Assembly: GCA_025062325.1 (NCBI GenBank)
Contig: JANXAL010000127.1
Location: 4,358 to 68,357 of the forward strand
Direction: 5' to 3'
DNA length: 64,000 nt
Source: Roseiflexus sp.
GTDB lineage: Bacteria; Chloroflexota; Chloroflexia; Chloroflexales; Roseiflexaceae
The position numbers were made by a program, and so were the translations under genes. The notes under the pieces were generated by a model that was not told the origin of the DNA, made no database searches, and was given only the letters and a program-made list of their open reading frames with translations. Shown here piece after piece: positions 41,548 through 60,844 of the stretch. Position 1 is the stretch's first letter; each line of letters opens with the position of its first letter.

Positions 41548-42460
41548 CCTATGGCGCAGCAGCCTCACACTGCCGCTAACCGCCCGTCGGGGCGCCCAGG
41601 GGACGCCTCTCTCACAAGTGTAGAGCTTTTGGGAAGCGATGGGTGTTTTCCGCGTCCCGCCGCCCTGTTTCCCCTCATCCCCCCTACCCCCTTCTCCCAC
41701 CCCCCCTGCGCCTTCCGCATGCAGGGGGTTGGGGCGTCCTGACGCTCAAAACGGGCGATGCAACAGAAGGGCTTGCCGAAAAATCTACACTTGTGAGCGC
41801 CTTCTCCCCTCCCCCGGGGGGCAGGGGGTGCTCTCAAGTGTAGGCTTTTTGGAGGCCAAAGCAGGTTTGCCGCATCCTGACGCCCTTTTCCCCTCATCCC
41901 CCCTACCCCCTTCTCCCACAAGGGGAGAAGGGGGAGTTGGGGCGTCCTGTCGCCTGAAACGGGCAATGCAACGTGAGGGCGTGCCGAAAAACCTATGTGA
42001 GGGCAGGGGGTGGGGGTGCGCCGGCATCCTCTCCTCTCCCCTGCTCTCAAGTGTAAGCTTTTTGGCGTGCGAAGCGGATTTGCCGCATCCCGACGCCCTG
42101 TTTCTCCTCATCCCCCCTACCCCCTTCTCCTACCCTTTCAAGTGTAAGCTTTTTGGCGTGCGAAGCGGATTTGCCGCATCCCGACGCCCTTGTTCCCCTC
42201 ATCCCCCCTGCCCCCTTCTCCCACAAGGGGAGAAGGGGGAGTTGGGGCACCCTTTTGCCTCAAACGGACGATGCAACGTGAGGGCGTGCCGGAAAAATCT
42301 ACACTTGTGAGCTTCTCCCACCCCCCTGCGCCCCCGCATGCGGGGGGTTGGGGGAAGAAGGGGGGGTTGGGGCGTCCTGACGCTCAAAACGGGCGATGCA
42401 ACAGAAGGGCTTGCCGAAAAATCTACACTTGTGAGGGGAGAAGGGGGAGCTACGGCATCC
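41548..42460. repeat. Cluster (>=6 copies, both orientations) of ~120-bp hairpin repeat units (CCCCTTCTCC-N7-GGAGAAGGGG core + gggcgtcctgacgc / tctacacttgtgag modules)
   Basis: Repeated blocks, e.g. ccccttctcccacaaggggagaagggggagttggggcgtcctg at ~41900 and ~42210, gcgtcctgacgctcaaaacgggcgatgcaacagaagggcttgccgaaaaatctacacttgtgag at ~41740 and ~42370. ORFs in the region translate the repeats (PLPPSPTRGEGG...). Confidence 0.8.
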
Positions 42461-45547: not shown

Positions 45548-46165
45548 CTAGCCTCTCTCTGCTTCCCGTTCGACAAACGCCAGCAGGTCGTCGTAGCCGT
45601 GCAGCACCGGGAAGTGCGGGAAATCGGCGACGACATTTTGCGGCGGCTCGAACAGTGCGCCGACATCTGCGGCGGTAAGCATTCCCACATCATTGTACGA
45701 GTCGCCGATCGCCAGCACCCGGAAGCGGAGTTCGCGCAGCGCGCGCACCGCAGCCGTCTTGCTGTCTGGCAGACGCAGGCGGTAGTTGGTGATCATCCCG
45801 TGCGCATCGACCTCGAGTGAATGGCAGAAGAGGGTGGGCCAGCCAAGTTTTGCCATCAACGGCATTGCAAACTCATAGTACGTGTCGGACAGAATAATCA
45901 CCTGCACCCGCGCCCGCAGCCGCGCCAGCGCCTCAACCGCGCCGGGCAGCGGGTCGATGGCGCTGATGACGCGTTGAATATCCGCCAGGGTCAGGCGATG
46001 CTCGCGCAGCAACGCCAGCCGTCCGCGCATCAGTTCGTCATAGTCAGGAACGTCGCGCGTTGTCAACCGCAGCCGCTCGATGCCGGTGCGCTCGGCGACT
46101 GCGACCCAGATCTCGGGAACCAGCACGCCCTCCAGGTCGGTGGCGAGAATTGTCGGTTGCGTCAT
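45548..46165 (-). CDS. HAD-family phosphoserine phosphatase, ThrH-like
   Basis: [11 protein letters not shown]...ILSDTFYEF-type motifs and overall length (205 aa) closely resemble Pseudomonas ThrH. Confidence 0.7.
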
Positions 46166-46396
46166 AACCCCTCGTGATAATCAGGACACGAGGATTGTAC
46201 CATGACCTGTGGGGGTTGGTGTTGGGGCATTCTGACGCAAAGGTTGTTGTACTGACCGCCAGACTTTACGCCTCTGCGTCTTCACATCTCAAGCAGTGTT
46301 GAGGGATGCGGTCAACGGCAGCGAGGAGCGCGGTGATAGTCAGATGTTTTGAATGCTTTGAATGAAAATGCTCCTGGTTGAAGAGACGGTAACAAC

Positions 46397-47824
46397 TCAG
46401 GAGAATGCTGCCGCTACTAAAACAGCAATAGTGATCAAAGCGAGCGAAAAGCTGCCAATAGCAATATAGAAGTTTCTAACAGCAGCGGCATCAGTAGCGG
46501 CAAGACGCGCCTGTAATACCTCCTGCTGCTGTTGAAGCTTGCTCAGTTCATCACCTGCCCGATCAATTTGCGCATACAGGGGTTCGAGCGTCGGAGAGTC
46601 AGGACGCACACGATCAACCATCGGACCCAAATTACTGATTAACGGTGCCATACGCTGCGTAAGTTCCGCTATTTGCTTATTGTGTGTGCGGATTTCTTCC
46701 TGAAGCGCCGCTATTTGGCGATCAAGAGGAGTCAACGCCTCGCGCTGCTCAGACTGGAGATTGAGAATCTGTTTTTCAAGACGCTCAAGGTCATTTGCGA
46801 GCGACGTCTCATCAGCGCTCAATTGCGAGATCTCGGACTGCAATCGTGGCACATCATTGGCAATCTGCACCAGCGACCGCTCCAGCGCTGCAATCGCATT
46901 CGATAGAGAGGCAGTTTGGGTTCCTTGGTCTGACGTCAAAGATGACTGCTGTTGCGCCAGCTTGTCTCGTAACGTTTGTATCTCCGTTTGAGTTTTCTGC
47001 TGGTCAACCTGCAACTTGCTCAATCGCTTCTCCAATGCCGACTTATCGGCACGAATCTTTGTCAATCGTGCACTTGCATTAGTTCGTTCTTCTTGAAGCC
47101 GATTGATACGCGCTGCATACTCGGCATCTGTCTGAGTTCGTGTTTGTCGTGCATTTTGCAATCTCTGTTCACAACTCCTCATTTGCTCCTGTAGAGCGGT
47201 GCGCTTCTGCTCTAAATCTTCCAGTTCGCCATATAGTTCTGCATAATCGGGATGGACAACACGCAATTCCCATGCCTTAGCAACCAGCTCAGAGACAAGC
47301 TGACGTCTGGTATTCTCGGCTCGGTTTTTATCGGATCCCGTCTTAAGCAATTGAGCTTTCCATTTACCGGCAGAAAGACCCGCTTCACCCCATTTCCTCA
47401 ACCTGCCCGTAAAGGCTAGACTTAGTGCTGTTCCCAGCGTAACAACAGATAATACTCCAGCGCCAATCAAAGGGATCCAGTTTATAGGACTTCTAGGTAT
47501 AACTACAGCATATGGCAACTGGTAGGGATTTTCCCAAACAACAGTGCCATCATTAATTTGTCTGCCATTGCTCTCGAGCACCTTACCAGCGTGAAGCGTC
47601 AGGGTGAATTTTCGGAAACCAGTCAGGTACTCATGGAACTCGAACTTATATGCACTGATTCCGTTATGAACTATCTCTGTCCAGGAAAATCCATCCTTTC
47701 CTCTGTCTGTTATTTGAGCCCGGTAACTCACTTCATACTCTATAACATCGCTAAGCCTGTTGTCGACGCGCTTCCACGTTACATCAGTAAAACCTCGCTT
47801 CTTAGCATCTTCGATGTATTTCAT
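46397..47824 (-). CDS. Two-TM coiled-coil protein (N-terminal globular domain, ~300-aa coiled coil, C-terminal TM anchor) in low-GC island
   Basis: TM1 WIPLIGAGVLSVVTLGTALSLAF, heptad-rich region with L/Q/E/R repeats, C-terminal FYIAIGSFSLALITIAVLVAAAFS. Local GC ~40-45% versus ~63% in the flanks. Confidence 0.5.
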   Translation of the reverse strand: MKYIEDAKKRGFTDVTWKRVDNRLSDVIEYEVSYRAQITDRGKDGFSWTEIVHNGISAYKFEFHEYLTGFRKFTLTLHAGKVLESNGRQINDGTVVWENPYQLPYAVVIPRSPINWIPLIGAGVLSVVTLGTALSLAFTGRLRKWGEAGLSAGKWKAQLLKTGSDKNRAENTRRQLVSELVAKAWELRVVHPDYAELYGELEDLEQKRTALQEQMRSCEQRLQNARQTRTQTDAEYAARINRLQEERTNASARLTKIRADKSALEKRLSKLQVDQQKTQTEIQTLRDKLAQQQSSLTSDQGTQTASLSNAIAALERSLVQIANDVPRLQSEISQLSADETSLANDLERLEKQILNLQSEQREALTPLDRQIAALQEEIRTHNKQIAELTQRMAPLISNLGPMVDRVRPDSPTLEPLYAQIDRAGDELSKLQQQQEVLQARLAATDAAAVRNFYIAIGSFSLALITIAVLVAAAFS

Positions 47825-48032
47825 CCAGTCTACGCTCTAACTCATTAATACCTCCGAACAAAACTATATTTTCGCTTGGAAAGCTAAGAAGAAGGGTGGA
47901 TTCATAGGAATTGTCGGAATATATTGTCACATCGTACGTTGCGTCTGCACACGATGCCAATAAAACAGCGCTGAGCAAAGCGGCGAAAACAGCTCGCATA
48001 AAACGACGGAAGCTCAGCACCAATGAGAACAT
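47802..48032 (-). CDS. Small putative lipoprotein (76 aa)
   Basis: Signal peptide with lipobox (AALLSAVLLASCADA) in the low-GC island. Overlaps the start of the downstream coiled-coil gene by 23 nt. Confidence 0.3.
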   Translation of the reverse strand: MFSLVLSFRRFMRAVFAALLSAVLLASCADATYDVTIYSDNSYESTLLLSFPSENIVLFGGINELERRLDEIHRRC

Positions 48033-49218: not shown

Positions 49219-51549
49219 TTAGCAAGCTCTTCTGTTACATCGCCCATTTTGATCACGAGGATGCGCAAACTCCCCTTCTTCCCTTGTGGGAGAAGGGGGC
49301 AGGGGGGATGAGGGGAAAACAGGCGTCGGGATGCCGAAAACGCCCCTCGCGCCTGAAAACTCTACCTGCGAGAGCCGTCGCACCTGCACGCGCGCCAGGC
49401 GCAGGCTCAGGGCGCGTGCATCGTCGCTTGCCGGGTTGAGCAGTGCGGGAACAAAGGTCGGCGCGCGCAGGTTAATCACGAGCCGCCGCTCCGCCACGCT
49501 CCCCGCCGGCGCCAGCAGGTGGTAGCGGCGCCATTGCCCGCGCGCAACGCTTATCGTCCACGCTGGTCCGTTCCCGATGCGCACGGTCAGCGGCGTAGTT
49601 GCGTCGGCTTCGCCGCCGGTCATCGACAGGACGATGACGGCATCATTGCGCAGCGGTTCCGCCAGCGGCAAGACGATCACCCCCTGCCCTTCGAGCCAGC
49701 GAAAGCCGCCGGTCGCGCCATCTTCGGCGGGTGAGAATCCGGCAAGGTAGCCCATGTCGAGACCATTCCCCACTGATAGCGTGTCTACCGGCGGCGGGTG
49801 CAGCCACGCCAGCGCCCAGCGTTGAATATCTTCGCCCGCAATGGTTTCGATGTAGGTCAGCAGAGTCGCCGCCTGCGCCGTGTCGCCAGTGTCGCGCAAC
49901 AATGCGCCGAACACCAGTTCGGCGTGGCGTGAACTGTTGCGCTGGATCTGCGCCAGCGCCTCGTCGTGGCGCTGCTGCGCCGCCAGCGCCAGCGCCAGAT
50001 GCACCTGTGCATCGACGAAACGCGGCTGCGCTTCGAGCGCGGCGCGAAATGCCCGTTCAGCAGCGGGATAGTCGCCTGCCTGATACGCCGACAGACCGGC
50101 GATCATGGCGCGTTCGCGCGCGATGCCGCTGCTGATGATCACCGGGTAGTCGCGGTAAGTGAGCAGCAGCGCGAAGAATGTCGCCACCGCTGCCGCCTGA
50201 AACGCCAGATGCGGCAGCGCGCGTGCGCCATTCCAGCGCGCCGCCGCCATCCCCGCGCCGTACAGCGCGATCATCACCCAGAGCGGCAGCAGGTAGCGCG
50301 GTTCGACATGGAAGATGAGCACGGTTAGCAGCGAGTAGCCGATCCACGCCAGGAACAACAGGCGGAAATGAATCCCTTCGCGTGCGCGCCCTGCAAGTCC
50401 GGCGATCCCCGCGGTCGTCGATCCCAGCCAGATCAGATCGCCCGCCAGACCCAGCAGCGCCGCTTCGCGCAGCGGTCGGGTGAAGAAACTCTGCTTGACG
50501 AAGTAATCCTCGATGAACTGCGCTTTCCAGATGTGACGGAAGGTGTCCCACATCGAGCGAAACGGGCGCAGCGGATCGGCAGCCAGGATCTCACGCGCAC
50601 GTTCGAGGGCGTAGATATGGCGCTCCGACTGTGGCATGCGCCGCAGCGTTTCGATGTTTTCGTTCCGCCGCGCCACATCGTCGAGATCGAGCCATAGATT
50701 GATCTGCCCCAGGGTATCGACCGGAATGAGGTGGCCATACGTCAGATAGTTGCGCGCCGTCCACGGCGCGACAATCGCCAGACATGCCGCCATCACGACA
50801 ATCGCTGGCGTGATCGCCGTCCTCGCCGCTTCCCAACGCGATGCAGCGCTGGATCGCGCTGCTGTCAGGGCGCGCACGACCAGCCACCCCACGACGAACA
50901 CGCTCGCATACAGCGCTGGCGAGCGCGTCAGCGCCGCCGCGCCGAGCGCCACCCCCGCCAGCGCCAGATCGCGCAGCCGCCCTCCCTGGTCGTAGCGCAC
51001 CAGCAACCACAGATGGATCAGAAACAGAAACAGGTACAGGTGCTCGCTGAACAACACGGTCGTCTGCTCGACCAGCGGATGCCAGAGCGCCAGGAACCCG
51101 GCGAACAGCAGCCCGGCGCGCGCGCTGCCGAACAACCGCCGCGCCAGATCGAACCCGATCAGCGGCATCAGCGCCGCCAGCGCCGTCTGCGCCAGTTGCA
51201 CGAACAGCAGTCCGAGTTGGGGAACGCCGAGAATCAGCGCCAGCCGCAGCCAGAGCGCAAAAAAGAAGACGTGGAGCGGCGGACGGATGAGCCAGGCGTC
51301 ATCGACATACGCACCGGTTACGGCAAACCGCAGCGCCCGCCGGTAGTAGTCGCCGTCGTCGGCATTGGAGTAGCGCGGATCGAGCGGACTGACGCTGATG
51401 AACCAGAGGCGTAGCGCGACGCCTGCCAGGACCAGCAGCGCCAGCAACACAGATGTGATCGCAACCGGGGACGCGCGCGCTTCGGACACAACGGGCGCCA
51501 TCCAGCGGCGCGGATTGAAACGGTGTGCCTGCGGTTGCGTTCCGCTCAC
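49219..51549 (-). CDS. Polytopic membrane protein, putative GT-C-fold (ArnT/PMT-like) glycosyltransferase with C-terminal TPR region; 3' end recoded by a hairpin repeat
   Basis: >10 TM helices, periplasmic-loop acidic motif (NADDGDYY), TPR-like C-terminal part (AGDYPAAERAFRAALEAQP...). The last ~35 codons (GIPTPVFPSSPLPPSPTREEGEFAHP...) lie within the 49230-49345 repeat copy. Confidence 0.45.
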   Translation of the reverse strand: MSGTQPQAHRFNPRRWMAPVVSEARASPVAITSVLLALLVLAGVALRLWFISVSPLDPRYSNADDGDYYRRALRFAVTGAYVDDAWLIRPPLHVFFFALWLRLALILGVPQLGLLFVQLAQTALAALMPLIGFDLARRLFGSARAGLLFAGFLALWHPLVEQTTVLFSEHLYLFLFLIHLWLLVRYDQGGRLRDLALAGVALGAAALTRSPALYASVFVVGWLVVRALTAARSSAASRWEAARTAITPAIVVMAACLAIVAPWTARNYLTYGHLIPVDTLGQINLWLDLDDVARRNENIETLRRMPQSERHIYALERAREILAADPLRPFRSMWDTFRHIWKAQFIEDYFVKQSFFTRPLREAALLGLAGDLIWLGSTTAGIAGLAGRAREGIHFRLLFLAWIGYSLLTVLIFHVEPRYLLPLWVMIALYGAGMAAARWNGARALPHLAFQAAAVATFFALLLTYRDYPVIISSGIARERAMIAGLSAYQAGDYPAAERAFRAALEAQPRFVDAQVHLALALAAQQRHDEALAQIQRNSSRHAELVFGALLRDTGDTAQAATLLTYIETIAGEDIQRWALAWLHPPPVDTLSVGNGLDMGYLAGFSPAEDGATGGFRWLEGQGVIVLPLAEPLRNDAVIVLSMTGGEADATTPLTVRIGNGPAWTISVARGQWRRYHLLAPAGSVAERRLVINLRAPTFVPALLNPASDDARALSLRLARVQVRRLSQVEFSGARGVFGIPTPVFPSSPLPPSPTREEGEFAHPRDQNGRCNRRAC
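49230..49345. repeat. Hairpin repeat unit overlapping the 3' end of the upstream membrane-protein ORF
   Basis: ccccttcttcccttgtgggagaagggggcaggggggatgaggggaaaacaggcgtcgggatgccgaaaac, same family as the other clusters. Confidence 0.7.
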
Positions 51550-54026
51550 GGTTGAACCTGCACCAGTGCGTATTTGCCGAATGTCGCAATCACCGCGCCG
51601 TCAGGACGCGGTCCTGCCTCGCTGCTGTGCAACAGGTAGCGCGTCTCCCGCTCCGGCGGCGCAATACGATGCGCAATCGCAGAGTACTTGCCGACCGGAT
51701 CGCCGGGCGCAAGCGCAGCGCGCAGCATTTCACCAGGCGGAACGGTCTGCTGTACGAGGCGTATCGCCGCCACCTCATCGGCGGGCTGGCGATCAAGAAC
51801 CTCGCGCGCGCCGAGTGCGAACCCCTGCCAGAGCAACGTAAGAAATACTAGCATGCTAGTGATCCAGAGCCGCGCCGGACTCCACGCCCGTCGCGCTGCC
51901 AGCGCACCAATCGCCAGCGCCAATGTCCACGCCGCTGCAATCGCATAGACCAGCGCCAGCGGCAGGTAGAAGCGTTGCAACGGCAAACCGACAGCGAGCG
52001 CGGCAGCGTACAGTGCAATCCACATGAGCAGCGGCGCGGCAAACGACGGGGCGGCAGCCTGAATGCCTGCACCCATGCGCTGCATCCCGATCAGCGCCAG
52101 CCACCCGACGAGACCGGCGACCGCCAGCCAGTTCGCCGGGAATGCCAGCAAGCGCAACTGCGACGCCTGTCCCGCATCGCCTGTCGACTCCGCACCAGCG
52201 CCGATGAATGCGCGCAGGTTCGACCACCACGCGCTGGCAAAGCGCGCCGGGTCTTCCAGGATGACGTCGGTGAGCGGTATGTCATTGCTGACCTCGTTCC
52301 AGCGCCCCCAGTCGCTGTCGCCGTACACGGCGAGCCAGACATTCTTTGCCTGCTGGTTGTAGAACGGATTGCCCGTATCGCGCACATTGACGATCACCTG
52401 CGGCGCAATTGCAATGAAAAAGGCGAGGACGAAAGCGAGAACGTTGAAGGTTGAAGGTTGAAGGTTGAAGGTTGAAGGTTGAAGGTTGAAGGTTGAAGGT
52501 TCAATGTTTGCCTCTCGCCGCTCGCCCCGCGCCTCTCGCCGCTCGCCGCTCACCTCTCGCCGCTTACCTCTTGCCTCTTGCCTCTCGCCTCTTGCCTCTT
52601 GCCTCGTCCACAGGATACCAAGCACCCCGAAGGGAAGGAGCAGGATTCCGGGGTGCCGCACCAGGAACGCGAAACCAGCGGCAACGCCGGCCAGGACAAG
52701 CAGCCAGGCGTTTTTCCGGTCCGTCCACTGCGCCAGCAGCGCCAGGGTCAGCGCGCAGAGCGCCGCGAACGGCATATCGCTGCCGATGTACAGCGCATAC
52801 TGCACCACAAACGGGTTGAGCGCCAGTATCACGAGCGCCGCCAGCGCCGCGACGCGCCCCAGCATACGGCGCGCCAGGACCCAGGACGCGCCGAGGAAGA
52901 TCATACCCGCAAAAGCGGCGACCATCCGCGCTGCCAGAAAGACATTGCTGCTAGTCAACGGTGCGACGCACCAGAGCAGGAACGGATACCCCAGGTTGTA
53001 GAACCCATCGGCGCGGAGAATCAGCGCCAGATCAACGGCGCGTGTGGCAAACACCCGGAAATCCTTCTCGACCCCCGGAACTGACAGGGTGACGTGATCC
53101 TGCGCTGCCAGAAGAACCGCTGCAGTCCACACGGCAATTCCCCCTAGCGCCAGAACATCCGGCAGCGCTGGCAGGCGCGCCGCGAGCGCCGGACCGTACC
53201 GCAGCACCGTTGCTGCGCCAAGCGCTGCGCAGATGCCGGGCAGCAGGCCGCGCAGCGGATACGGGTACGCGGGCTGAAGCCGGTACAGCAGCAGCCAGGC
53301 AAGACCGATCAGCAGCATTCCAGCGATCCAGACGCGCAGCGGCGTGAAGAAGCGCAACCAGGGCTTGCGTTCGCCCCACTGCGTATCTGCCAGCGCCAGC
53401 GCCAGCAGCGCCCCGGCGAGCGCCCCCCACGCCAGTTGCGCCGGATACGGTTGCAGCGGCGGTCCTCCAGTGCGATACTCCGCCGCATCGACGAGCACCC
53501 CCGCCAGCCGCGGATCGCCGGAACCGATCGGCGCAACGTCGGCGCGCAGGGTGATTAGCACGTCCTCTGGCTTCAGCGAAGGCTGCTGCACTACCAGCCG
53601 GATCTCCTGCCACTCGCTGGCGGTTGCGCCGCTGTATGCTTCGCGCCCATCGACCAGGATCGTGATCTGCGGCGGCGGACCATCAGCGCGCCAGCCGCGC
53701 AGTCGCAGCATCACTTCAGCAGGAAGACCAGCCTGCGGAAAGAGCAGATGCGACTCAACGCGCGTCCAGCGCGCGCTGCCGTCCGACCCGTTGAGATAGG
53801 CGCGCGCCTGCGGCAGATCGAGGCGCTCCGGGTCGTAGAAGCCGCGCACATACCCGGCGTCGAACCGCCCTACATTCACATGATGTGTAACCGGTATCTG
53901 GTACAGCAGGGTTACCAGCAGCATGCCTGCTAGCGCTGCCGCAATCGCGCGTATCGCCAGCTTCAGCGCGAGTGGCGCTCGCGCGCCCGTTTCGCTGCTC
54001 ACAATCGCTTCCAGACGCCGATGCAT
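51546..54026 (-). CDS. Polytopic membrane protein (GT-C-like/unknown family) containing microsatellite-encoded low-complexity loop
   Basis: >12 TM helices. Loop insert ...TRQEARGERQEARGKRREVSGERREARGERREANIEPSTFNLQPSTFNLQPSTFN... is encoded by two simple-sequence repeats. ATGA-coupled to the downstream membrane-protein gene. Confidence 0.45.
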   Translation of the reverse strand: MHRRLEAIVSSETGARAPLALKLAIRAIAAALAGMLLVTLLYQIPVTHHVNVGRFDAGYVRGFYDPERLDLPQARAYLNGSDGSARWTRVESHLLFPQAGLPAEVMLRLRGWRADGPPPQITILVDGREAYSGATASEWQEIRLVVQQPSLKPEDVLITLRADVAPIGSGDPRLAGVLVDAAEYRTGGPPLQPYPAQLAWGALAGALLALALADTQWGERKPWLRFFTPLRVWIAGMLLIGLAWLLLYRLQPAYPYPLRGLLPGICAALGAATVLRYGPALAARLPALPDVLALGGIAVWTAAVLLAAQDHVTLSVPGVEKDFRVFATRAVDLALILRADGFYNLGYPFLLWCVAPLTSSNVFLAARMVAAFAGMIFLGASWVLARRMLGRVAALAALVILALNPFVVQYALYIGSDMPFAALCALTLALLAQWTDRKNAWLLVLAGVAAGFAFLVRHPGILLLPFGVLGILWTRQEARGERQEARGKRREVSGERREARGERREANIEPSTFNLQPSTFNLQPSTFNVLAFVLAFFIAIAPQVIVNVRDTGNPFYNQQAKNVWLAVYGDSDWGRWNEVSNDIPLTDVILEDPARFASAWWSNLRAFIGAGAESTGDAGQASQLRLLAFPANWLAVAGLVGWLALIGMQRMGAGIQAAAPSFAAPLLMWIALYAAALAVGLPLQRFYLPLALVYAIAAAWTLALAIGALAARRAWSPARLWITSMLVFLTLLWQGFALGAREVLDRQPADEVAAIRLVQQTVPPGEMLRAALAPGDPVGKYSAIAHRIAPPERETRYLLHSSEAGPRPDGAVIATFGKYALVQVQP
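52441..52620. repeat. Two adjacent in-frame microsatellites inside a CDS: (TTGAAGG)x9 followed by GC-rich ~15-bp units (cctctcgccgctcgcc-like) x ~6
   Basis: ttgaaggttgaaggttgaagg... (63 bp), then ctctcgccgctcgccccgcgcctctcgccgctcgccgctcacctctcgccgcttacctcttgcctcttgcctctcgcctcttgcctcttgcc. Confidence 0.85.
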
Positions 54027-54076
54027 ACGTCGCGGGAGTGTACCATATTTTCACCCTCGTCAGCAACGAAGGGGTA

Positions 54077-54085
54077 TGCTATACT
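54077..54085 (+). promoter_or_regulatory. Candidate extended -10 element (TGcTATACT) upstream of the CHAT gene
   Basis: In the 73-bp divergent intergenic region. Leader would be very short (~8 nt). Confidence 0.25.
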
Positions 54086-54099
54086 ACAACAATCACACC

Positions 54100-56169
54100 A
54101 TGAAATCGTACTCCGACTTCGAAATTGCGGTAACAGCGGCTGAGAGCGGTCGTTTTCTTCTCAAAGTGCGCGGACCGCGCGGCGAAGAGGGGGACGGCGA
54201 ACTGCGTCCGCCCGACTCCGACCCGCAGGTTCAGACGCTGCTGGCGCGTCTGCGTGCGCTGGACCTCGACGAAGCCGGGATTGTCGCGCTTGGTCGGGCG
54301 CTGTTTGATGCGCTCTTCGCTGGCGCTGTGCGTGATGTGTACGTTCGCTGCCGGGGCGCGCTTGGCAGCGATGAAGGGCTGCGCCTGCGCCTCAACATTC
54401 CGCCATCGGCAGCGTCGGTGGCGATGCTGCCCTGGGAGTTCCTCTATGATCCTGATCGCGGTCCGCTGGCGCTGCTCGACGCGCCGGTGGTGCGTCACCT
54501 GCCGCAGCCGGACCGTATTCCGCCGCTCACCGCGCCGTTGCCGTTACGTGTGTTGCTGACTGCTGCACAAACGCCGCCGCCAACTGCCGTTGAACGTGAA
54601 CTGGCAGCAGTTCAGACGGCGCTCGAACGTTTTGGCAACCAGGTTTCCACCACAGTCGAACCGCATCTGACCGTTGACACGCTGCAGAAGCGGCTGCGCG
54701 AAGGGTGCCACATCTGGCATTTCGTCGGTCATGGCGGGTTCGCTGCCGATGGCGCTACGGCGTGTCTGCTGTTCGAGGACGACCTTGGCGACCCGGAACC
54801 GATCAGTGCGCTGCAACTCAGTATTATGCTCGACCGGAGCAACCTGCGGCTGGTCGTGCTGGACGCCTGCGCCACCGGACAACTGTCGCTCGACCCGATG
54901 CGCAGCATTGCGCCGGCCCTGGTGCGCGCGCAGATTCCTGCTGTCATTGCAATGCAGTCTCCGGTATCAGAGGAAGCCACCCGCGCCTTTGCCGGTGCAT
55001 TCTATCGCGCCCTGGCGGACGCCTTCCCGATCGATTTTTGCGTCACCGAAGGGCGCCGTGCCGTCATGAACATTGTCGGTCTTGGTCGCGCCGACTGGGG
55101 CATCCCTGTGATCTATACACGCACCGAAGACGGACGCCTCTTCGATCCCCCTGCTGTTCATACGCCATCGACCGTGGCGGAAGTCACGGCGCGCTCCGTC
55201 GGAACCGGCATTCAGGCGCTCGAAGCCCTCATCGAGACTGGCAGTGATGTGCGTGAGGCGGTGATCGCGTTTCGCGCCGATTTCCAGGCGGCGGCGCACC
55301 AGATCGACATCCTGGCGGATTACAAAGATGTGCACGATCGACTGCACTCGCTCCAGTTCCACTGCTACAATCCGATTGTCATCGACATGCGTCGCCTGCC
55401 GGATGATGACCTGGCGTGGGAGAGCATCGCCAGTTATGAGGTGGCGCTCCAGGGCATTCTGCGCGACCTGGATCAGGTGACCGAACGCAACCGGCTGCCA
55501 GCGAGCGAATTGTCGTGGGTGGCGGATGTGCGCGCTGCACAGGCAGACATCGCTCAGGCGATTGAAGCGAGCGACCCAAAGCTGCTAAAAAAGGCGATCC
55601 GCCTGCTCAACCGGGTGCTGACCACCCAACCGTCCCTGATCAATGCCCGTCTCAACACCGCAGCGCGCGCCCTGCGCCTCACCTCGCTCGTCCAGGGCAT
55701 GTCCGCCGTGCGCGACTGGCTCAGCAATGCCGGATATGATGCCGCCAGGATCAGCCAGATCGAAATCGGCGTTGCGGCGCTGACAACTCTCAGCGCCAGC
55801 CTCGCCAGTCTGGTCGACGAACATGATCGCTGGCAGATCATCGATCTCGATCTTCGCCGCATTGAGCAGTTCATCGATCAGGACATGACAGAACTGGAAC
55901 TCTCCTGGCCCGACGTGCGCGAACGGCTGGCGCCATTCTACCTGGAAAGCGCCGAGTCCTGGGGCGCTGCCTTGAAGCAGGACGCCGACAAGGTGACCAG
56001 CGCGCTGGAGGCTGCCGATCTGACCCGGGCGCGGCAGTTCTTCCGCCGTTTTCGCCGCCAGGCAGGAGAACGTTTTTTCCGCGTCGATATCGAACTCAAG
56101 CGGGTGTGTGACGAATTACGCAAGGTTGGCGAGCCGCTGGCTTCCGTCCTCAGGATGCTGACGCCATGA
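54100..56169 (+). CDS. CHAT-domain (caspase-like) protease with ~400-aa alpha-helical C-terminal region
   Basis: Catalytic dyad in canonical CHAT context: His in HIWHFVGHGGF, Cys in LRLVVLDACATGQ. Followed by IPAVIAMQSPVSEE. ATG 54100; the stop overlaps the start of the STAND NTPase gene (ATGA). Confidence 0.75.
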   Translation: MKSYSDFEIAVTAAESGRFLLKVRGPRGEEGDGELRPPDSDPQVQTLLARLRALDLDEAGIVALGRALFDALFAGAVRDVYVRCRGALGSDEGLRLRLNIPPSAASVAMLPWEFLYDPDRGPLALLDAPVVRHLPQPDRIPPLTAPLPLRVLLTAAQTPPPTAVERELAAVQTALERFGNQVSTTVEPHLTVDTLQKRLREGCHIWHFVGHGGFAADGATACLLFEDDLGDPEPISALQLSIMLDRSNLRLVVLDACATGQLSLDPMRSIAPALVRAQIPAVIAMQSPVSEEATRAFAGAFYRALADAFPIDFCVTEGRRAVMNIVGLGRADWGIPVIYTRTEDGRLFDPPAVHTPSTVAEVTARSVGTGIQALEALIETGSDVREAVIAFRADFQAAAHQIDILADYKDVHDRLHSLQFHCYNPIVIDMRRLPDDDLAWESIASYEVALQGILRDLDQVTERNRLPASELSWVADVRAAQADIAQAIEASDPKLLKKAIRLLNRVLTTQPSLINARLNTAARALRLTSLVQGMSAVRDWLSNAGYDAARISQIEIGVAALTTLSASLASLVDEHDRWQIIDLDLRRIEQFIDQDMTELELSWPDVRERLAPFYLESAESWGAALKQDADKVTSALEAADLTRARQFFRRFRRQAGERFFRVDIELKRVCDELRKVGEPLASVLRMLTP

Positions 56170-59100
56170 CCGATCATCCATCGCCGGAACGTACACCCGA
56201 CCGCAACGCGCTGGCGTACCCTTCGTTCGCAGCGCTGCGCGCAGCGCACACCGACCTGCTTCGCCGCCAGCGCGATGAGGGATTGACGCCGTCGGTCCTG
56301 GGACAGGCGGCTGAAGTCATCGCTCGTGGCAGCGCCACCGGCGTGCTGCTCGAAGATGAAGACGAGCGCTCTGCAGCGCAGAGTCTGCTCGATTACTGGG
56401 CGACGATCCTGATTCGTACAGGATATGAACCGCCTGACGCCACCCTTGATGAGTTTGATCCATCTCTCGCACCAGAACTGGACGATGCTCACTGCCCTTA
56501 CGTCGGTCTGGACCCGTTCCGCGAAGAAGATGCGGCGCGTTTCTTCGGTCGGCAGCGCCTGGTTGAGTTTCTGGTCAACCGGCTGAATAACCAGCGCATG
56601 CTGGCGCTGCTCGGACCTTCCGGCGCTGGCAAGTCATCGGTGGTGCGCGCCGGGCTGATTCCTGCCCTGAAACAGAATGCTCTGCCTGGCAGCGGCGCCT
56701 GGCGGTATGCTCCAGTAGTGACGCCAGGCGAGCAACCGCTGATGCACCTGGCGCGCGCGCTGCGTCGCCTGAACGGTCAACCTGATGACCTGGCGCGCGA
56801 TGAGGAGCTGGCGAAACGGTTTCGCGATCCCCGGGAAGTGGCTACCGCATTCGATGGACCTGAACCGACGGTGCTGGTTGTCGATCAACTGGAGGAATTG
56901 TTCACCCTCACCGATGATGAAACCGAGCGCCATGCATTTGTCGAAGCCATGGTCGCTCTCGTGGAACGTCCATCACCTCGTCACGTGGTCATCGCCACGA
57001 TGCGCAGCGATTTCGAGAGTTTTATTGCGCTCGAACCATCGCTTCAGCAGTGGATGGAACGGGCGCGGGTGCAACTGCTGCCGCTCAGCGCCAGCGAGAT
57101 GCGTGAGGCGATTGAACGTCCGGCGGAACTGGTCGGTCTCAAGTTCGAACCGGGCGTTGTTGACGCCCTGTTACACGACACGCTTGGCGAGCCGGCCGCG
57201 TTGCCGCTGCTGCAGTTCTCGCTGCTCAAACTGTGGGACGCGCGCGACCGCAACCGGGTGACCTGGCAGGCATACCAGCGGATCGGCGGCGGACGACGGG
57301 CGCTGGCGCACAGCGCCGATGCATTCTACAACAGCCTGATCCCGGAGGATCAGGTGACGGCGCGCCGCATCCTGATGCGGATGGTGCGCCCCGGTGAGGG
57401 ATTGGAGATCACCAGCAATCGCATTCGAAGCGACCAGCTCTACCGCGCTGGCGAAGCGCGCGACCGGGTCGACCGGGTGCTTGACCGCCTGATCGCGGCG
57501 CGCCTGGTGCGCCTCACTCCCGGCGATACGCCGGAGAGTGCGCAGATCGAAATCGCTCATGAAGCGCTCGTGCGCAACTGGCCTACCCTTGTAGAGTGGC
57601 TCGAGGATGAGCGTGCAGCAATCGCAACACGTCGCCGCCTGGAGGCAAAAGCGGCAGAGTGGGTGCGACTCGGCGGCGGCGCTGCCGGGTTGCTCGACGA
57701 GGTGCAACTGGCGGAAGCCGAACGCTGGCTGAACAGCGCCGAAGCCGCGTATCTGGGGTATGACGAAGCATTGCTCGATCTGGTTGCCGCCAGCCGTGCG
57801 GCTATCGATCAGGCGCGACGCGCGGAAGAAGAGCAGCGCCGCCGTGAACTCGAGCAGGCGCAGGCGCTGGCTGAAGCGCGCCGCATTCAGGCGGAACAGA
57901 ACGAACAACTGGCGATCGAGCAGGGGAAACGCGCTGAAGCCGAAGCGCGCTCGGCACGCCGGTTGCGTCTGGTTGTGATCACGATGGCCTTTGCCCTGAT
58001 CGGCGCGATTATTTCAGGCGTGATGCTGATTCTGCAACAGACGCGACTCAGAGCAACCGCTTCCGAACTGGCAATCCAGGTCGGCATTTCCAACATGGCG
58101 CTCGCCACCGCTCAGGCGGCTGCTGAAGACGCCCGGATCGCCGCTGCAACTGCGCAGTCTGCCGAGAGCCTGGCGCTGCTACGCGGCACCGAGGCGGCGC
58201 TGGCAGCCGTTCAGGAAGCGCAGGCGCGCCGGACTGCCGAGGCGCTGGCGTCGATCCTCGAACGAGAGGCGCGCCAGGCGCGCGCCGGTCAACTCGCGGC
58301 GCTGGCGCAGGCGGAACGTGAGGATCGTCCCATCCTGAGCCTCCTGCTGGCAATCGAGGCAGTGCAGGTGACGCTGCAGAAGGGTGAAGCGTCCATCCCC
58401 GTCGCTGATGCCGCCTTGCGAGGATCGCTCGCACGCACTGGCGGCGTGGGCCTGGCGATCGGCAGTCCGCTGGTCGCTGCAGCCGCCAGCGACGACGGCA
58501 CGGTTGCCGCGTTCCTAACCGCTGACGGCGCCCTGCAGGTCTGGAACCTGACCGATCTGAGCCAGCCGCCGCGCAGCGCCAGCGCTCCCGGCTCACCAAC
58601 GCTACTGGCGCTTTCATCCGATGGCGTCCGCCTGGTCACGGCTGGCGCCGATCCTGCCAGCATCCGCCTTTGGGATATTGCCGGCGCGACGTTGACCGCA
58701 CGCGAACTTGCCGCACCCGGCGGGATCAACACCGCCATCGCCCTGAGCCGTGATGGACGCCTGCTGGCAATCGGCGATAACCAGGGGACAACCCTCGTGC
58801 ATGATTTGACAAACCTTTCGGCGCCGCCACAACGCCTGAGCGGGCTTGGCGGTCGCAGCGGCGTTCGTGCGCTCGCCTTCAGCCCCGACGGTCGCATCCT
58901 GGCGACCGGCAACGATGATAGCCAGGCGCGACTCTACAATCTGGACTCTGGTTCTGGAACATATACCCGCGAACGAACTCGCGGCGCACTGACCTCGATC
59001 ACCTTCAGCAGCAACGGACGCTGGCTCGCCTATGGTAGCACCGGGGGGCAGGTGCGCCTCTGGCGTCTGAACGGCGCACAGTTCAACGCGGTCTATGTGC

Positions 59101-59618
59101 TGCTGGGCTTAACGGCAGAAGTCACGGAGGTGCGCATCGCATCCGGAGACGCGCTGGTCATTGCGGGCAGCGCTGACGGAACAACGTGCCTCTGGGACCT
59201 CGAAGCACGCACCGACAACCGGGCGCGCGCGGTGTTGCGCGGTCAGAGCGCCCGGATCACAGGACTGGCGTTGAACGGCGGCGCCAGCCTCCTGGCAACC
59301 GCCAGCGCCGACGGTCAGGCGGCCCTCTGGGATCTGCGAGCCGCCGATCCTGGCGTCAAACCGGTGATCCTGCGCGGCCACGACGGCACCGTCACCAGTG
59401 TGGTGATACCGGTGAACACTTCGCTGATGCTGACTGCGGGCGCGGACGGCATGGCGCGGATCTGGAACCTTGACGCGCCGCTTTACGTCCCTGAGACGCT
59501 ACCGCAGGCGAGCCAGGAACTGATCGACGTCGCCTGCCGCGCTGCAGGACGAACGCTGTCGGTAGCCGAATGGAACACATACTTTGAAGGAATGCCATAT
59601 AATCCGTCCTGTCAGTAA
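56166..59618 (+). CDS. STAND-type P-loop NTPase with internal transmembrane helix, coiled-coil and C-terminal WD40 beta-propeller (1150 aa)
   Basis: NTPase entry motif PYVGLDPFREEDAARFFGRQ, Walker A LLGPSGAGKSSVV, Walker B VLVVDQLEELF. TM helix LVVITMAFALIGAIISGVMLIL (~aa 600). At least 7 WD40 repeats (GHDGTVTSVV..., LATASADGQAALWDL, LTAGADGMARIWNL). Confidence 0.75.
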   Translation: MTDHPSPERTPDRNALAYPSFAALRAAHTDLLRRQRDEGLTPSVLGQAAEVIARGSATGVLLEDEDERSAAQSLLDYWATILIRTGYEPPDATLDEFDPSLAPELDDAHCPYVGLDPFREEDAARFFGRQRLVEFLVNRLNNQRMLALLGPSGAGKSSVVRAGLIPALKQNALPGSGAWRYAPVVTPGEQPLMHLARALRRLNGQPDDLARDEELAKRFRDPREVATAFDGPEPTVLVVDQLEELFTLTDDETERHAFVEAMVALVERPSPRHVVIATMRSDFESFIALEPSLQQWMERARVQLLPLSASEMREAIERPAELVGLKFEPGVVDALLHDTLGEPAALPLLQFSLLKLWDARDRNRVTWQAYQRIGGGRRALAHSADAFYNSLIPEDQVTARRILMRMVRPGEGLEITSNRIRSDQLYRAGEARDRVDRVLDRLIAARLVRLTPGDTPESAQIEIAHEALVRNWPTLVEWLEDERAAIATRRRLEAKAAEWVRLGGGAAGLLDEVQLAEAERWLNSAEAAYLGYDEALLDLVAASRAAIDQARRAEEEQRRRELEQAQALAEARRIQAEQNEQLAIEQGKRAEAEARSARRLRLVVITMAFALIGAIISGVMLILQQTRLRATASELAIQVGISNMALATAQAAAEDARIAAATAQSAESLALLRGTEAALAAVQEAQARRTAEALASILEREARQARAGQLAALAQAEREDRPILSLLLAIEAVQVTLQKGEASIPVADAALRGSLARTGGVGLAIGSPLVAAAASDDGTVAAFLTADGALQVWNLTDLSQPPRSASAPGSPTLLALSSDGVRLVTAGADPASIRLWDIAGATLTARELAAPGGINTAIALSRDGRLLAIGDNQGTTLVHDLTNLSAPPQRLSGLGGRSGVRALAFSPDGRILATGNDDSQARLYNLDSGSGTYTRERTRGALTSITFSSNGRWLAYGSTGGQVRLWRLNGAQFNAVYVLLGLTAEVTEVRIASGDALVIAGSADGTTCLWDLEARTDNRARAVLRGQSARITGLALNGGASLLATASADGQAALWDLRAADPGVKPVILRGHDGTVTSVVIPVNTSLMLTAGADGMARIWNLDAPLYVPETLPQASQELIDVACRAAGRTLSVAEWNTYFEGMPYNPSCQ

Positions 59619-59665
59619 GCAGGAATCGAGTGTAGAACGGAGTGATGCGAGAAAGGGGGAGATCG

Positions 59666-60844
59666 ATGCCCAACGCAAACGACATCGTCATCATTGGCGC
59701 AGCACGCACGCCAATTGGCAAGTTCCAGGGCATGTTTCGCACCATTCCCGCCACCGACCTCGGAGCGCACGCGGTTCGTGCTGCGGTCGCGCGCGCCGCC
59801 ATCGATCCGGCGCTGGTAGACGAGTGCATTATGGGGAATGTGGTCAGCGCGGGGCTTGGTCAGGCGCCTGCCCGTCAGGCGGCGCTGCGCGGCGGTCTCC
59901 CTGAATCGGTCGGCGCTCTGACGATCAACAAGGTCTGCGGCAGCGGACTCAAGGCGGTAACGCTAGCTGCCGCCCTCATCCGCTGTGGCGAAGCGTCGCT
60001 CATTGTTGCTGGCGGCATGGAAAGCATGTCTCGCGCGCCCTACCTGCTGCCGCAGGCGCGTGGCGGCTACCGCCTGGGCAATGCCGAACTTGTCGATGCG
60101 CTCATTCATGACGGACTGTGGTGCGCATTCGAGCATCACCATATGGGACACGCCGCTGACTGGACGGCGCGCACCTACGGGGTCACTCGCGAGCAGCAGG
60201 ACATCTACGCTGTCGAGTCGCAGGCGCGTGCGATCGCTGCACAGGATGCCGGGGCGTTTGCCGACGAAATCGCCCCGTTCCCGTTACCAGGCGGCGATGC
60301 CCTTGCCGCCGACGAGCCGCCGCGTCGGGGGGTGAGTCTCACAACGCTCAGCACATTGTCACCCGCCTTCTCGCCCGATGGAACGGTGACTGCGGGAAAC
60401 GCACCCGGTCTGACCGATGGCGCGGCTGCGTTGGTGGTCACCAGCGCACAACGTGCAGCCGACCTTGGTGCGCGCCCGCTGGCGCGGTTGATCGCTGTAG
60501 CGCAGGCGGCAGTCGCGCCGCGCGAGGTCTTCACAGCGCCGGTGTACGCCATTCGTCGCCTGCTGGCGCAGACGGCGACAACCCTCGATGACTACGATCT
60601 ATTTGAGATCAACGAAGCATTTGCCGCGCAGATTGTTCAGAACATACGCGCATTGAACCTCGACCGCGACCGGCTGAATGTGCACGGCGGCGCAATTGCG
60701 CTGGGACATCCAATTGGCGCCAGCGGCGCACGTATCCTCGTGACGCTCATCTACGCCCTGATCCGACGCGGCGGCGGACGCGGCATCGCAGCGCTCTGCC
60801 TGGGAGGAGGCGAAGCCGTAGCAGTGGCAGTGGAAACGCTATAG
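59666..60844 (+). CDS. Acetyl-CoA C-acetyltransferase (thiolase)
   Basis: Thiolase motifs NKVCGSGLKAV (active Cys), GGMESMS, C-terminal ...CLGGGEAVAV. AAGGGGGA SD before ATG 59666. Confidence 0.85.
   Translation: MPNANDIVIIGAARTPIGKFQGMFRTIPATDLGAHAVRAAVARAAIDPALVDECIMGNVVSAGLGQAPARQAALRGGLPESVGALTINKVCGSGLKAVTLAAALIRCGEASLIVAGGMESMSRAPYLLPQARGGYRLGNAELVDALIHDGLWCAFEHHHMGHAADWTARTYGVTREQQDIYAVESQARAIAAQDAGAFADEIAPFPLPGGDALAADEPPRRGVSLTTLSTLSPAFSPDGTVTAGNAPGLTDGAAALVVTSAQRAADLGARPLARLIAVAQAAVAPREVFTAPVYAIRRLLAQTATTLDDYDLFEINEAFAAQIVQNIRALNLDRDRLNVHGGAIALGHPIGASGARILVTLIYALIRRGGGRGIAALCLGGGEAVAVAVETL

Follow-up and report, generated by a model that had tools for sequence, protein, structure and literature searches.

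Within a 64,000-nt stretch of Roseiflexus sp. DNA (contig JANXAL010000127.1 of assembly GCA_025062325.1), referred to here as the window, two genes lie one behind the other on the plus strand and share four nucleotides. The upstream gene (gene A) encodes a CHAT protease with an all-alpha C-terminal tail, and the downstream gene (gene B) encodes an nSTAND1 nucleoside triphosphatase (NTPase) with a single transmembrane (TM) helix and a WD40 propeller. An earlier reading of this DNA, made from the sequence alone (the original prediction), had described an ATGA in which the stop codon of gene A overlaps the start codon of gene B, and we found this overlap in place. Gene B is 100% identical to NZ699_17255, a protein of a Roseiflexus sp. 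metagenome-assembled genome (GCA_033579455.1). The features of both genes are collected in Table 1.

Table 1 Features of the gene pair in window coordinates (ORF, open reading frame; aa, amino acids)
Feature	Coordinates	Strand	Residues	Basis or remark
Gene A, CHAT protease with constant helical tail	54100..56169	+	689 aa	ORF listing and Pfam CHAT
CHAT (caspase-fold) domain	54286..55068	+	aa 63-323	PF12770, E=1.7e-24
All-alpha C-terminal tail domain	about 55192..56166	+	aa ~365-689 (~325 aa)	proposed coupling domain to the NTPase
ATGA stop/start overlap	56166..56169	+		read directly from the sequence
Gene B, membrane-spanning nSTAND1 NTPase	56166..59618	+	1150 aa	ORF listing and Pfam
N-domain, three-helix bundle with acidic linker EPPDATLxEFDPxLAPELDD	56208..56501	+	aa ~15-112	phmmer, alignment, model
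nSTAND1 NTPase module	56496..57671	+	aa 111-502	PF20703, E=2.8e-114
Charged coiled-coil stalk	57672..57965	+	aa 503-600	coiled coil judged from sequence; predicted cytoplasmic
Single TM helix	57969..58034	+	aa 602-623	Kyte-Doolittle 2.54
Ala-rich helical stalk after the TM helix	58035..58475	+	aa 624-770	predicted extracytoplasmic; low conservation
WD40 beta-propeller	58476..59480	+	aa ~771-1105	Pfam WD40 families; predicted extracytoplasmic sensor
C-terminal cap with Cys pair	59508..59615	+	Cys1124, Cys1149	C-x3-GR-x-[LM]-[TS]-x2-EW-x2-[YF]-x7-10-C

The CHAT domain of gene A scores 87.2 bits against a PF12770 cut-off of 24, and the dyad motifs HFVGHGG and VVLDACATG are both present. The catalytic histidine, His211 (54730-54732), is kept in 113 of 119 homologues, and the catalytic cysteine, Cys257 (54868-54870), in 118 of 119, in agreement with the caspase-like domain with an intact His/Cys dyad that had been proposed. 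About 75 full-length homologues combine CHAT and tail at 40-97% identity, several of them on the same contigs as homologues of gene B. The start of gene A is ambiguous: translation from the ATG at 54076 gives the 697 amino acids of the NCBI record, and translation from the ATG at 54100 gives 689, the length of most homologues. No TM helix was found in the product of gene A, which is a soluble protein.

The product of gene B runs from an N-domain through the nSTAND1 NTPase, a coiled coil, the single TM helix and a second coiled coil to the WD40 region. Its NTPase module scores 383.1 bits against a PF20703 cut-off of 27.1 and covers model positions 1-374 of 379, so that the profile matches of the pair are strong for both the CHAT domain and the P-loop NTPase. 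All the STAND motifs named in the original prediction are present: the entry motifs PYVGLDPF at residue 111 and FFGRQ at residue 126, the Walker A sequence GPSGAGKSS at residues 150-158 (56613-56639) and the Walker B sequence VVDQLEE at residues 238-244 (56877-56897). K156, D240, E243 and E244 are invariant in 117 of 117 NTPase homologues. With Walker A and Walker B both intact, this nSTAND1 is, as judged from its sequence, an active rather than an inactive (iSTAND-like) version.

The extension of about 100 amino acids that had been noticed before the NTPase is a genuine conserved domain, matched in 119 of 120 homologues (phmmer, 1e-20 to 1e-73). In the structural model it forms three helices, at residues 21-38, 42-61 and 65-84, with predicted local distance difference test (pLDDT) values above 90; a Foldseek comparison of this fold with the PDB returned nothing below E=2. 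Some NTPase homologues (P0237 at locus L087, 5001-9380, and one at L018, 9025-12423) carry ~430-460 extra residues before the N-domain. In P0237 this extension includes GAF and cyclic nucleotide monophosphate (cNMP)-binding modules, which suggests an added intracellular input, and EAD10-NACHT genes surround L087.

Pairing of the two genes was examined at loci collected by a genome scan with an alignment of close-relative tails, one genome per species, which yielded 80 loci. To these were added one Leptolyngbya and one Kouleothrix locus (n=82), and all were searched with hidden Markov models (HMMs) built from our own alignments. We observed a tail gene followed by a same-strand gene for an N-domain and nSTAND1 in 79 of the 82 loci. 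At a further locus (L045) the N-domain match that follows the tail gene is cut off by the contig edge, and at another the contig ends too early for an NTPase partner to be assessed; with L045 counted in, 80 of the 81 assessable loci hold the pair. The only assessable exception (L061, 6609-8987) has a tail gene followed by an unrelated ORF of 347 amino acids and no gene for N-domain and nSTAND1. Reciprocally, when four distant NTPase homologues were examined, all four had a tail gene directly upstream. Of the 82 loci, 54 share the exact 4-nt ATGA overlap and most of the remainder have gaps of 3-19 nt; one locus (L088, 3841-14939) contains two pairs of tail and nSTAND1-WD40 genes in tandem, with a 4-nt overlap in each.

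The hosts of the scan loci belong to Chloroflexota (Roseiflexus, Chloroflexales, Anaerolineae, Caldilineae), filamentous cyanobacteria (including Leptolyngbya, Nostoc, Anabaena, Calothrix and Scytonema) and Acidobacteriota. The pair is therefore kept as neighbours far beyond Roseiflexus, in three phyla. Chloroflexota and cyanobacteria had been named in advance as likely hosts, as had actinomycetes; the first two were borne out, but no actinomycete occurs among the 80 genome loci, and Acidobacteriota are an additional group. Two identical contigs of 6085 bp (L072 and L074) are filed under two bins, Desulfobacteraceae and Anaerolineae, which is probably a binning artefact. The near-obligate co-occurrence, together with the conserved translational coupling, supports the proposal that the CHAT tail and the N-terminal extension of the NTPase are candidate matched coupling domains.

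The tail had been estimated at ~400 amino acids and measures ~325. Its AlphaFold model is confident (pLDDT 94.6). Even at E<10, Pfam scans of the isolated tail, N-extension and TM/stalk region returned nothing above noise, and no PDB sequence was matched by the tail profile, by the CHAT domain or by the N-domain plus nSTAND1. At the Leptolyngbya locus the gene before the NTPase, again with a 4-nt overlap, has an EAD10 head (386 amino acids), and its C-terminal ~325 amino acids are 46% identical to the Roseiflexus tail (E=3e-102). At the Kouleothrix locus the corresponding gene (409 amino acids), also with a 4-nt overlap, has a head without a Pfam match and a C-terminal ~325 amino acids that are 36% identical to the Roseiflexus tail (E=9e-40). 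Because these partners share the tail behind other heads, the constant partner of the NTPase is the ~325-amino-acid tail, and CHAT is one of several interchangeable heads.

An exhaustive HMM search of 1.84 billion representatives, with clusters at 50% identity, recovered the tail in 1,943 clusters at E<=1e-3 and in 1,033 at E<=1e-30. In every case it forms the extreme C-terminal end of the protein, preceded by a head of 0-480 amino acids. In the profile search the heads were EAD10, EAD1, EAD7, TIR, CHAT, SARP-type (BTAD, PF03704) or none. Heads were also counted by Pfam in two sets, where those not listed here had no Pfam match. Among 75 genome loci we counted CHAT (26), EAD10 (15), TIR (11), EAD1 (6), EAD7 (2) and caspase (Peptidase_C14; 1), and among 99 representatives at 50% identity TIR (22), CHAT (17), EAD7 (8), EAD1 (5), EAD10 (4), EAD9 (1), protein kinase (1) and HEPN (1). 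Where the tail has an EAD or only a short head, caspase or CHAT genes adjoin it, some of which carry EAD10, EAD11 or TCAD2. The possibility that the N-domain and the tail form a homotypic, EAD-like pair was rejected at an hhalign probability of 0.2%; the two are not homologous, and therefore they do not constitute a classical homotypic EAD pair. The tail retains the invariant polar residues K46, H49, D50, N152, H212, Q216 and D300 (numbered by the first row of the tail alignment) and the motifs YKDLHD, QPSxIN and HDxWQ, a pattern that points to a pocket for ligand binding or catalysis and away from a purely passive adaptor.

The helix between the NTPase and the WD40 region, present as originally described, is the only strongly hydrophobic helix in the product of gene B. 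It had been regarded as an unusual property of this locus, but it proved to be a hallmark of the family: one TM helix, ~430 amino acids past Walker A, occurs in 115 of the top 120 homologues at a strict threshold and in 118 of 120 at a slightly lower one. In the 15 residues flanking the helix, the mean number of Lys and Arg is 5.1 on the N-terminal side and 2.0 on the C-terminal side, and the N-terminal side is the higher in 110 of 115 proteins (Wilcoxon p=3e-20). This charge bias is consistent with an N-in/C-out topology for gene B, and an ATP-dependent NTPase requires a cytoplasmic N-terminal side in any case.

Beyond the membrane helix, gene B matches WD40 (PF00400) at E=2.5e-34, with WD40-family matches spanning residues ~780-1133. 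We counted from the sequence eight WD-like repeats, ending near residues 795, 838, 881, 928, 969, 1012, 1057 and 1102, rather than the seven blades first proposed. WD40 is present after the TM helix in 31 of 61 homologues; the others have trypsin-like or pYEATS modules, a weak SH3_3 match, or no known match. When close relatives are compared, conservation is highest in the NTPase and first coiled coil and lowest in the TM helix, second stalk and propeller. A post-TM region that varies in this way and diverges fastest is as expected of a sensor. The cap motif that ends the protein occurs in 77 of 115 homologues, and its two cysteines are often the sole cysteines of the post-TM region. The Cys pair was considered as evidence for an outside location and was downgraded: because a homologue without a TM helix (P0207) keeps the motif, it was not used for topology.

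In the window the pair is flanked on one side by two divergently transcribed PMT_2 membrane-protein genes and on the other by thiolase, ASCH and sucC genes. The same placement between PMT_2 and thiolase/sucC recurs in three other Roseiflexus-lineage assemblies (four in all), among which tail identity falls as low as 76%. In the Roseiflexus lineage the pair therefore holds a stable, syntenic place in the chromosome and does not form a mobile island. Its flanks in other taxa bear no relation to those in Roseiflexus, and for this reason the upstream PMT_2 proteins were rejected as system components. The two large membrane proteins and the repeat clusters that had been pointed out beside the locus are both real, being PMT_2-family proteins and short tandem repeats, and are not parts of the system.

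Several further observations concern the surroundings of the pair. Two arrays of 7-nt units, GAAGGTT (9 copies) and GCCTCTC (13.7 copies), lie at 52439-52605 within the minus-strand PMT_2 gene (51546-54026; 826 amino acids), where they encode STFNLQP, repeated three times, and EARGERR-like peptide repeats. Since seven is not a multiple of three, gain or loss of one unit would frameshift the 826-amino-acid protein. A 91-nt tandem repeat (1.9 copies, 95% matches) is found at 42047-42221. The G+C content is 0.50 at 46001-48000, compared with about 0.60-0.65 elsewhere, and this segment contains a minus-strand ORF of 475 amino acids (46397-47824). The thiolase gene starts 23-47 nt past the stop codon of the NTPase gene on the same strand (59618-59666). 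The promoter/terminator scan found no terminator-like site between the two, and read-through transcription is therefore possible. A promoter-like TCGTCA-17-TATACT precedes gene A at 54057-54085; the scan of the window as a whole was not above chance. An Rfam search of the window at gathering thresholds gave no matches.

Known systems resemble parts of this arrangement. PknD of M. tuberculosis is a receptor-type Ser/Thr kinase with a cytoplasmic kinase domain, one TM helix and an extracellular beta-propeller. Its topology is like that predicted for gene B, but the cytoplasmic module of the Roseiflexus protein would be a STAND oligomerisation switch with a tethered protease instead of a kinase. 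CHAT proteases activated by a partner include Csx29/TPR-CHAT, which acts with Cas7-11, and the SAVED-CHAT proteins of CBASS and type III CRISPR systems. In these, as proposed here, the protease is silent until a partner complex signals, whereas the Roseiflexus pair has no SAVED, TPR or CRISPR component and its putative activator is a membrane STAND NTPase. At the level of single domains, PADLOC-DB 2.0 matched SAVED_CHAT weakly to the protease domain of gene A (7.4e-9) and mad3 to gene B (0.003, P-loop only). An NCBIfam scan returned no equivalog match, and an identity of gene A as the HetF cell-division protease (NF045509) was rejected, the score being 71.5 bits against a cut-off of 1200.

The logic of nSTAND1 NTPases combined with EADs, and the polymorphism of their effector heads, have been described by Kaur et al. 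(Kaur, Iyer, Burroughs & Aravind, eLife 2021, PMC8195603; 2020, PMC7159879). The counter-invader systems share with the present family the PF20703 clade, a C-terminal sensor and polymorphic effectors (caspase/CHAT, TIR, kinase, HEPN) that are joined either directly or by way of EADs, and they occur mostly in multicellular-type bacteria. The trait of a constant core with polymorphic effector heads is evident here too, with CHAT, TIR, EADs, kinase and HEPN on the tail. These systems differ in using FGS or lectin sensors and the same EAD on both partners, whereas the Roseiflexus pair has a ~325-amino-acid tail and a non-homologous three-helix N-domain. Moreover, its tail belongs to a separate, translationally coupled upstream gene, and a TM helix parts its NTPase from its sensor. 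No Pfam EAD was found in either Roseiflexus protein, and relatives carry EAD1, EAD7, EAD9 or EAD10 before the tail.

The Apaf-1 apoptosome and bacterial Apaf-1-like STAND proteins also join a STAND NTPase, a WD40 propeller sensor and a caspase-fold protease, and a 2026 survey (PMC13581612) records cyanobacterial WD40 STANDs of the Apaf-1-like type that bear caspase heads. In contrast to these, the Roseiflexus NTPase is nSTAND1 and not AP-ATPase/NB-ARC (nSTAND1 is the best match, and NB-ARC, PF00931, is absent from the listed Pfam matches of gene B), there is no CARD, the protease is a separate polypeptide and, as predicted, the membrane parts the propeller from the NTPase. The two-gene EACC1 caspase system (System 4 of PMC7159879) is likewise membrane-near, with a caspase-superfamily protease and an occasional nSTAND1. 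However, its 5' gene encodes a small single-TM protein and its 3' gene starts with the caspase, while in Roseiflexus the 5' product is a soluble CHAT-tail protein and it is the 3' NTPase that contains the TM helix; Pfam scans of the pair gave no EACC1 match. Taken together, these comparisons place the locus among nSTAND1 NTPases and CHAT proteases, and outside the homotypic-EAD, EACC1, AP-ATPase, PADLOC and HetF groups. Neither the tail domain, the N-domain nor a TM helix between NTPase and sensor is described in the passages of PMC8195603, PMC7159879 and PMC13581612 that were read.

We consider it probable that the locus is a two-gene, translationally coupled, NTP-dependent signalling module for conflict or programmed cell death, which senses outside the cell and activates an effector inside it. 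Gene B would be a type-II membrane protein, with the N-domain, nSTAND1 and charged coiled coil in the cytoplasm and the second stalk and WD40 propeller outside. The tail of gene A would be its dedicated partner, most likely through the N-domain, and would hold the CHAT protease at the cytoplasmic side of the membrane. Binding of an envelope or extracellular cue by the propeller would cause a change transmitted through the stalk, TM helix and stalk, upon which nSTAND1 would exchange nucleotide and oligomerise. The tethered CHAT domains would thereby be brought together and activated by induced proximity, and would cleave cellular targets, so that growth stops, the cell dies or a further cascade is set off. 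The conflict or cell-death role put forward in the original prediction gains support at the level of the family, where the same tail bears TIR, CHAT, HEPN, kinase and EAD heads. More tentatively, and short of calling it probable, we propose that the cassette of tail and N-domain-nSTAND1-TM defines a large unnamed class of transmembrane STAND receptors, in which an interchangeable outside sensor would act on a cytoplasmic oligomerising NTPase and, via a heterotypic coupling domain, on caspase-like, TIR, HEPN or kinase effectors, as a prokaryotic 'death receptor'. On this reading the putative polar pocket of the tail might provide a second input, from inside the cell.

Several points weigh against this interpretation. 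Contact between tail and N-domain is suggested by their co-occurrence, and the 150 best tail proteins include no fusion of tail and NTPase genes. With its invariant polar residues, the tail may have a role beyond tethering. The predicted topology rests on hydrophobicity and charge bias, and a charged coiled coil, such as forms the N-terminal flank of the TM helix, raises the count of Lys and Arg on its own. Two of 120 homologues lack the TM helix and retain both propeller and Cys-pair cap, so that the propeller can function in the cytoplasm. Unlike typical mobile defence islands, the Roseiflexus pair lies among housekeeping genes and is syntenic down to ~75% identity, and no PADLOC-DB 2.0 system model matches the two genes.

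The same machine might serve housekeeping or developmental signalling at the envelope or between the cells of filamentous bacteria rather than immunity against invaders, for example in kin recognition, filament fragmentation or a response to cell-wall damage, with CHAT proteolysis as in HetF. We think this unlikely. It would fit the conserved position of the pair between PMT_2 and thiolase/sucC genes in four Roseiflexus-lineage assemblies, with their housekeeping flanks, the partial similarity of the CHAT domain to HetF, the predominance of filamentous Chloroflexota and cyanobacteria among the hosts, and the absence of a whole-system PADLOC match. However, many hosts are Acidobacteriota, which are not known as filamentous; the similarity to HetF falls far under its cut-off; paralogous pairs stand in tandem in some genomes, as at L088; and the sensors are polymorphic and diverge fast. 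The TIR, HEPN and several EAD heads on the same tail, and the EAD10-NACHT genes in NCBI-listed neighbourhoods, are moreover typical of conflict systems (PMC7159879, PMC8195603).

It is also conceivable, and to our minds distinctly improbable, that sensing of the cue takes place within the cell, in the tail or in the N-domain and NTPase, and that the TM helix and outside propeller merely anchor or localise the complex, for instance at the wall or septum, or even act as its output. The invariant polar residues of the tail (YKDLHD, QPSxIN, HDxWQ), which across ~1,900 clusters suggest a binding pocket, point in this direction, as do the cytoplasmic GAF and cNMP-binding modules before the N-domain of some NTPase homologues, the post-TM modules that are enzymes or wall-binders (trypsin-like; the weak SH3_3 match) and the existence of variants without a TM helix. 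Yet the post-TM region is the most variable part of the protein, as expected of a ligand-facing sensor, and the conserved coiled coils on either side of the TM helix look like a transmission stalk. C-terminal repeats are also the sensor in characterised STAND proteins (PMC7159879, PMC13581612). That the two genes are a chance juxtaposition or a decaying remnant without joint function is hardly credible; nothing was found in its favour, and both ORFs are intact, the catalytic motifs are invariant, and the pairing and 4-nt overlap are conserved across three phyla.

To our knowledge, the bacterial STAND immune sensors so far characterised (Avs, bNACHT, Apaf-1-like) have all been described as receptors in the cytosol that detect molecules of the invader within the cell. 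The tail, for which Pfam has no model, has a confidently predicted fold and forms a family of ~1,900 clusters (50% identity); it offers a simple genomic marker for finding such systems and a definite interaction to probe, and the variants in genetically tractable filamentous cyanobacteria (Nostoc, Anabaena, Leptolyngbya) make the hypothesis directly testable. If outside-in sensing through gene B is true, the cassette would join it to NLR-type switching. With the sensor placed beyond the membrane, STAND/NLR-type signalling would then reach to monitoring of the envelope or the surroundings of the cell, which could include phage adsorption, contact with competitors, the state of neighbouring cells or damage to the wall.

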